Virus record (IMG/VR): IMGVR_UViG_2737471863_000001
DNA from: a virus
Lineage: Duplodnaviria; Heunggongvirae; Uroviricota; Caudoviricetes
DNA length: 33,695 bases
Direction: 5' to 3' (one strand)
Each line of letters begins with the position of its first letter. Position 1 is the first letter of the stretch. Below, in pieces: positions 1 through 622 of the stretch. The notes below the pieces were generated by a model. The model was not told where the DNA came from. It saw nothing but the letters and a program-made list of their open reading frames with translations, and ran no database searches. A program made the translations under genes and the position numbers.

Positions 1-504
1 TTACAATTTTATTTCACATGCCGCTACAAACTTATTAACAGCAGAAGTTGAGCCGGACACATTAGCAGAAAGGGAAAATTTGCTGCCGCCATCTTCTGTT
101 TGCGCGCCAACCAATACTTGAGATTTGGCTTCCTTCAGTTGTTTGAGAAGAATTTTGAGTTGTTCAGCATCATTAGTTGCAATTTCGAGAGCTTGCACGT
201 TCCTTCTTGAAAGCGTTGCGTTAAATTTGAGTGCGTTATTTCCATCAACTTTCATCACCAACTCCATTGGCATTTTGGCTGTTGATTCGTGTGTTTTGTC
301 CATCTCCACGTATGCAGCGGTAAGAGTATTTTTTGTACAATTGAAAATGATCGCACTATTGTCAGATGACGTTTCACCAATCATCGCTGCCTTTTTACCA
401 TCAGAAAACAAGTCATCTTCGGTTTGGGTTAGCCATTGTGCCTGCGCTATTGGTGAGATTATCGCTGTAGTAATAAGGACCATCTTGAGAGCTTTGCGCA
501 TCAT
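1..504 (-). CDS. hypothetical exported protein (N-terminal signal peptide), probably flank gene outside the prophage
   Basis: Complete ORF, ATG at 504 (cat at 502-504) with AGGAAA SD 7 nt upstream; N-terminus MMRKALKMVLITTAIISPIAQAQ looks like a cleavable signal peptide; gene and upstream spacer are visibly AT-rich compared with the phage body. No family recognised. Confidence 0.45.
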   Translation of the reverse strand: MMRKALKMVLITTAIISPIAQAQWLTQTEDDLFSDGKKAAMIGETSSDNSAIIFNCTKNTLTAAYVEMDKTHESTAKMPMELVMKVDGNNALKFNATLSRRNVQALEIATNDAEQLKILLKQLKEAKSQVLVGAQTEDGGSKFSLSANVSGSTSAVNKFVAACEIKL

Positions 505-622
505 AAAAATTTCCTATTCTGAACCAAAGTAAAATTTAAAGAGAACCAGGAATTCTCCATGTATATGTTTATAAAACGATAAATTTTTTCAAGCAAGGCA
601 TGACAAAATTATTTGATACAAA

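Follow-up and report, generated by a model that had tools for sequence, protein, structure and literature searches.

The mom-distal end of the phage

The window analysed here is the whole 33,695-nt stretch of a Caudoviricetes virus record (IMGVR_UViG_2737471863_000001). It reads, in order, an open reading frame (ORF) for a 167-aa protein, a 118-bp spacer, mom, com, the rest of a Mu-like phage and, at 33695, the start of the transposase gene. Window position 1 is the last base of the stop codon of the 167-aa ORF; negative positions in the following list denote DNA beyond the window edge.

-187 to -82, outside the window: Mu-type attR, the last 106 bp of the phage, with the terminal TG and R1-R2-R3
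-55 to -27 (28-56 nt past the stop of the cargo gene): 11-bp hairpin without a U-tract
1-504, minus strand: cargo gene for a 167-aa protein, predicted to be exported (RefSeq WP_040100330.1, 'hypothetical protein')
439-504, minus strand: predicted Sec-type signal peptide, codons 1-22 (MMRKALKMVLITTAIISPIAQA, followed by QW), from inspection, hydropathy and conservation
505-622, minus strand: spacer between the mom stop and the start of the cargo gene, 25% GC, with the ribosome-binding site AGGA at 512-515
605-619, plus strand: single copy of the motif AAAATTATTTGATAC, placed by alignment
623-1369, minus strand: mom, for which RefSeq gives a start at 1357

The initial annotation had described the DNA leftwards of about 505 as much more AT-rich than the phage and as encoding a complete protein with a signal peptide. 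Both observations were borne out. The ORF has 41.3% GC and the spacer 25.4% as against 55% for the phage, the drop starting at about 640 rather than 505, and the complete ORF on the minus strand carries a signal peptide by inspection and hydropathy. Stretches of 504 bp elsewhere in the window average 55.0 ± 4.6% GC with a minimum of 44.4%, and none is as AT-rich as the ORF. The extra DNA as a whole runs from about window position 600 to -82, or ~0.7 kb, and its GC content of 38% is below that of every other 504-bp segment of the phage.

Two further features of the phage lie beyond com. An intact 874-aa tail-fibre ORF occupies 2157-4781 on the minus strand, of which identical RefSeq records annotate only the first ~120 codons, as a pseudogene 'missing C-terminus'; the phage has neither a gin invertase nor an invertible G segment. 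A DUF4376 gene (1583-2149) is located between com and the tail fibre.

Right end and insertion sites of the prophage

The first 1500 bp of the window have 100% identical copies in five complete E. coli genomes at two loci, within a disrupted gspE in RM11911, RM13745 and RM13752 and within a disrupted mdtO in XJ34 and XJ6-3. At both loci the 167-aa gene lies between mom and the broken host gene. When the gspE and mdtO junctions were aligned, identity ended 188 bp left of window position 1, with unrelated DNA beyond. The phage sequence common to both junctions begins TGAGGCGGCGCACGAAAAACACGAAAACGTTTCATGAAAAATGCGAAAACC, and the flanks split immediately before TGAGGCGG (terminal 5'-TG). The phage end could be aligned to the right ends of Mu and D108 over ~105 bp, including the sites annotated in D108. 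Its MuA sites R1 and R2 are direct and R3 is inverted, and they match the consensus ...RAARYRCGAAAR. The core of the MuA site, RCGAAAR, occurs in four copies 126-176 bp left of the window (L001 5824-5874) and in no copy within window 1-700 (L001 6001-6700).

By its sequence, the right end here is a normal, canonical Mu-type attR. It shares with Mu and D108 the terminal TG, R1, R2, the inverted R3, an inward-pointing hairpin with a T-run inside attR (present in Mu too) and the 5-bp duplications described below, and differs in a few base substitutions, e.g. TGAGG versus TGAAG. Its position is different: attR lies ~810 bp from the mom stop, compared with 115 bp in Mu, and is thereby placed outside the window.

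The same end was found in 10 further assemblies encoding the identical protein. From the stop codon to the terminal CA, all 188 nt matched with zero mismatch, and each copy ended ...GCCTCA and was followed by unrelated DNA. These assemblies added nine distinct sites, near pta, otsB, nrdA, a lambdoid lom, ppsA and others, which brings the total to 11 independent insertion sites with the 188 nt exactly alike. The other prophage end was found in RM11911 and XJ34 and terminates ...GAATCAATACA. In these two complete prophages both junctions show perfect 5-bp target duplications, CGGGA in RM11911 and AACGC in XJ34, and the element in RM11911 is 35,153 bp long (a 35.2-kb prophage). The empty site was modelled from the two XJ34 flanks with a single duplication copy between them, and this model was contiguous in 5403 of the 5426 E. 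coli genomes. The right end, the target duplications, the empty site and the constancy of the 188 nt across sites together place the 167-aa gene inside the transposed unit. The prophage, present at no fewer than 11 insertion sites, is evidently complete and active as a transposable phage.

These data decide against a prophage end within 505-622, a reading that would make the 167-aa gene part of the E. coli chromosome beside the insertion. That reading drew on the fact that Mu ends 115 bp past mom and on the sharp fall in composition at the spacer, and the initial annotation had accordingly expected the phage end in 505-622 and considered a prophage-host boundary there. The figure of about 150 bp past mom that it gave for Mu holds for Mu itself and is not transferable to the present phage, whose Mu-type right end begins 188 bp to the left of the window. 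The gene and the 188 nt move with the phage to at least 11 chromosomal sites, the target duplications enclose a unit that includes the gene, and the gene is missing from the intact empty site, mdtO being uninterrupted in other genomes. The spacer contains no MuA site, as the initial annotation had noticed and the RCGAAAR scan of window 1-700 confirms, while the full R1-R2-R3 set lies beyond the gene; no homology to the Mu or D108 ends was found within 505-622 either. We therefore give the chromosomal reading practically no probability. A Mu-type right end to the left of position 1 had been named beforehand as the finding that would speak against a boundary, and this is where the end was found; the alternative offered at the time, that the gene is cargo (a moron), proved correct.

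The map of this prophage is corrected accordingly: the element reaches 188 bp past the window, and boundary-calling tools or readers assuming the Mu layout would clip it. We also observed that the Mu right end matches, over its first 50 nt (R1-R2; L001:5813-5862), the very tips of plasmid records from Streptomyces, Borrelia and others at 90%. The most likely source of these matches is adapter sequence left untrimmed from MuA-transposase library kits, and not biology.

The mom-attR slot and its occupants

Comparison with related phages locates the inner edge of the extra DNA. Homology to D108-type phages breaks at window positions 597, 603 and 605 and homology to Mu at 639, and the last codons of mom together with the 25 to 40 bp past its stop belong to the D108/STEC388 type and not to that of Mu. 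The mom gene lies directly beside attR, ~115 bp from the end, in Mu, STEC383 and ETEC1732. In D108 the same slot holds gene 56 ('D108-specific protein', ACV50316.1, 148 aa) on the same strand as mom, and the D108 and present cassettes have homologous flanks on both sides, namely the attR block and the short segment after the mom stop. Gene 56 resembles the 167-aa gene in being small, in having no assigned function and in being rare among E. coli Mu-like prophages. The two products have no sequence similarity (BLASTP E 0.67) and fall into different families, PHROG 15648 versus 19473; judged by sequence, the genes are alternative cassettes and not homologues. Among complete E. coli genomes the present cassette occurs in 5 of 5426 and that of D108 in 6 of 5426, and of the 97 E. 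coli genomes that have this mom region, only 5 also have the 167-aa gene. No copy of the cassette outside a prophage was found in the 5426 E. coli genomes, and none was found in plasmids. The junction between mom and attR thus serves Mu-like phages as a slot for cassettes, and at least three states of it exist: empty, occupied by D108 gene 56 or occupied by the 167-aa gene.

We thus read window 1-622 as the inner part of a ~0.7-kb moron cassette lying between mom and the Mu-type right end, with a probability of about 0.85. The cassette is of an ordinary moron type. It resembles lambda bor, lom and the HK97/HK022 morons in that a lone extra gene sits between sites that are adjacent in relatives, is foreign and AT-rich in composition and has a product that appears to be targeted to the envelope; lambda bor sits between the lysis genes and the terminase. 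It departs from these classical morons in that the 167-aa protein is predicted to be neither a lipoprotein nor an outer-membrane barrel and in that no promoter/terminator pair was found in the present phage. In the strict sense a moron is an autonomous transcription unit, whereas here no convincing sigma-70 promoter was found and the hairpin has no U-tract. Nothing in this arrangement would surprise a phage specialist; what is new is the occupant of a slot already used by D108 gene 56 and a protein family that has been catalogued but not characterised.

The motif at 605-619 is common to D108 at the same place, and its 8-mer alone is statistically unremarkable. Going by the alignment, it is probably a relic that marks where the cargo slot borders on mom (about 597-605). 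STEC388 (L014:1944-2025) and E300082 (L015:1934-2015) are Mu-like prophages with a ~95% identical mom and a quite different right end, which reads TAAAGCGCGCGAAATTATTTGATACC... and in which three TTTGATAC-containing repeats, all copies of the motif seen once at 605-619, replace the MuA sites R1-R3. The sequence of this end suggests a transposase with a different end specificity.

The origin of the cassette could be sought in fossil host DNA that once lay beside an older right end, was packaged by the headful mechanism and became fixed when a new Mu-type end was gained distally. The foreign base composition would fit such a history, as would the persistence of the alternative end motif (605-619) right after mom, where STEC388-type prophages end, and Mu-like phages are known to package host DNA at the right end (PMC4378225). 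It is the absence of non-prophage copies from the 5426 E. coli genomes and of any copy from plasmids that tells against this history, and the nearest homologues are themselves located in prophage accessory slots. D108, with a different cassette between the same two flanks, looks more like the outcome of cassette exchange by recombination. We consider the fossil origin improbable, and it touches the origin only, leaving the present nature of the segment as a moron cassette unchanged.

Two further comparisons around the gene were set aside. The DNA downstream of the gene was considered as a remnant of the convergent 216-aa neighbour found in Enterobacter, but tblastn gave no support and the DNA homology is confined to the coding region; a 13-nt match between the upstream region and the ribosome-binding-site region of the Enterobacter homologues is too short for interpretation. 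Rfam detected no RNA family in the region.

The 167-aa protein, its relatives and its possible role

The N-terminus of the protein divides into MMRKALK, with three basic residues, then MVLITTAIISPI and then AQA, followed by QW, which by inspection fits the -3/-1 rule for cleavage. The Kyte-Doolittle hydropathy averages +2.2 over residues 8-19, and the signal-peptide pattern and cleavage region are conserved across family alignments. There is no lipobox cysteine, the first cysteine being residue 56, and a soluble periplasmic protein is therefore predicted. The mature part would comprise 145 aa (15.7 kDa, pI 5.5). In an alignment of 119 sequences, no member departs from W24 or C56, and D87 and C163 are almost invariant. 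Comparison with the genes of Citrobacter and Enterobacter gives a dN of 0.15-0.2, with saturation at synonymous sites; the pair with a measurable dS gives dN/dS = 0.09, a low value that indicates a real gene under purifying selection.

The homology search proposed in the initial annotation returned a full-length match to PHROG 19473, an uncharacterised family. Close relatives (61-71% identity) are few and enterobacterial, whereas an exhaustive profile search collected 246 cluster representatives (~250 clusters at 50% identity), almost all of ~165 aa. Longer distant members include P0156 (474 aa), in which the domain appears repeated, and P0050 (391 aa) and P0055 (297 aa), which have an extra C-terminal domain of no recognised type; P0070 is an apparent chimeric gene call with a major capsid protein. 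Nothing significant matched the 167-aa protein in Pfam, NCBIfam or PDB sequences (two profiles), and D108 gp56 was likewise null in family searches. None of the 119 family members matched any Pfam family, PADLOC defence profiles gave no match at E <= 1, and tblastn against 50,697 deposited phage genomes found no match to the protein. Our literature search found no paper on the 167-aa gene or on phage-borne IalB-like proteins.

The structure model has a pLDDT of 94 and consists of an alpha/beta domain that begins at residue 24, with residues 3-14 forming a detached helix of lower confidence. Its fold agrees with that of IalB, the closest matches being IalB (PDB 3dtd) and the N-terminal domain of MotY (8z5n chain A). 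Sequence identity of the 167-aa protein to the IalB family (Pfam PF06776 / COG5342; 3dtd) and to MotY (8z5n) is only 8-11% (IalB 11%). A profile search of PDB sequences does not retrieve 3dtd, and with the Pfam IalB family none of the 119 members reaches E <= 0.01; the longer relative P0055 shows a sub-threshold Pfam IalB match of 18.7 bits against a cut-off of 22.1 (E 0.002). In BFVD, only weak fold matches were obtained, to uncharacterised T4-like phage proteins. Proteins with an IalB domain are exported to the envelope and act by a mechanism that is not established (PMC7327166); one of them, RgsG of Sinorhizobium, is periplasmic and essential for polar growth (PMC7327166). As the biochemical role of IalB is itself not established (PMC7327166), the fold informs on location and not on mechanism.

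The homologues with 69-71% identity belong to Enterobacter and Citrobacter prophages of the lambdoid type, where they separate the lysis genes from the terminase, as bor does in lambda, and lie on the strand opposite the late genes. A relative with 44% identity immediately precedes gemA in the early region of another Mu-like phage. Distant members were found in a myovirus tail module, antisense to its neighbours, convergent with a CI-type repressor, in a prophage remnant and in a plasmid-like Bradyrhizobium region, and one alphaproteobacterial homologue (Aminobacter) has an apparently ordinary chromosomal neighbourhood. Because of these contexts, we regard the family as mainly mobile-element cargo, usually forming what appears to be its own transcription unit. 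The Enterobacter island (L006:6508-8415; L007:6508-8416) also encodes the convergent 216-aa protein, which is basic, an Ivy-like (lysozyme-inhibitor) protein and a 119-aa protein with a TolA C-terminal domain; the L006 copy additionally carries an Acb2/Tad1-like anti-defence gene, and several island products look envelope-targeted. In the Bradyrhizobium contig (L038, with resolvase, ParB and ParD), two 169-aa genes at 2874-3383 and 5001-5510, 1.6 kb apart, may be paralogues of the family.

For expression, the AGGA at 512-515 stands 7 nt upstream of the ATG (504-502). No terminator was seen between mom and the cargo gene (RNA fold z = -0.14 versus shuffles), so the gene is probably expressed by read-through from the late com-mom transcript. 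A scan of the spacer for the sigma-70 consensus returned nothing at threshold and weak candidates only, and a weak promoter in this AT-rich DNA may contribute. A 19-codon upstream ORF (MENSWFSLNFTLVQNRKFL, window 501-560, minus strand) has a TGA that overlaps the start of the cargo gene (ATGA). It has no Shine-Dalgarno sequence before it and is for that reason probably fortuitous.

From sequence and conservation, we infer that the precursor would be exported by Sec and cleaved after AQA22, and that the mature protein would fold in the periplasm, with C56 and C163 joined in a disulfide. In this compartment it would bind an envelope component rather than act as an enzyme, a role that is a reasoned guess. 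The location of the protein, its fold neighbours and its genomic company lead us to suggest, tentatively and at somewhat less than even odds, that the most likely benefit is protection of the lysogen or progeny from incoming phages or envelope-targeting agents through superinfection exclusion or receptor masking. A broader proposal, which we hold to be rather doubtful, is that the family is an unrecognised, widespread group of periplasmic IalB-like proteins on mobile elements that would give lysogens a new envelope-level protection by blocking DNA entry or the receptors of competitors. Its members range from enterobacteria to Rhizobiales and occupy accessory slots of unrelated temperate phages, among them Mu-like, lambdoid and contractile-tailed ones, as well as places beside repressors. 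If true, this would provide the first functional handle on the IalB fold. The family is conserved, predicted to be exported, confidently foldable and strongly tied to temperate phages, which makes it a reasonable candidate for superinfection-exclusion or lysogenic-conversion screens.

Two other accounts of the function compete with protection of the lysogen. The gene could belong to the lytic cycle instead of lysogenic conversion, its only transcript being the one shared with com-mom, made from the late C-dependent mom promoter. The product would then act in the periplasm late in infection, for example by masking receptors and so sparing progeny from loss on debris, or by excluding a superinfecting phage during the burst. 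The layout is compatible with this, as the gene follows com-mom in the same orientation at a distance of 118 bp, no terminator-like structure intervenes, no good independent promoter was found, and D108 gene 56 is arranged alike. Homologues elsewhere, however, are antisense to late genes or lie beside a repressor, as is typical of prophage-expressed genes; where they are antisense to their neighbours they must form an autonomous transcription unit, and weak or regulated promoters in AT-rich spacers often escape consensus scans. On balance we view a purely lytic role as fairly unlikely. A virulence or host-interaction factor acquired by lysogenic conversion, acting in invasion or adhesion like Bartonella IalB, is considerably less probable still. 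Such a role is hinted at by IalB being the best structural match, by the sub-threshold Pfam IalB match of one relative and by carriers that include STEC-type and bovine isolates. It has to be set against the 11% identity to IalB and the failure of all 119 members to reach the Pfam threshold, and the protein has no anchor or surface-display signal. IalB-domain proteins also include housekeeping envelope proteins such as RgsG (PMC7327166), and the family is present in phages from soil and wastewater as well as in elements of Rhizobiales, which have no link to an animal host.
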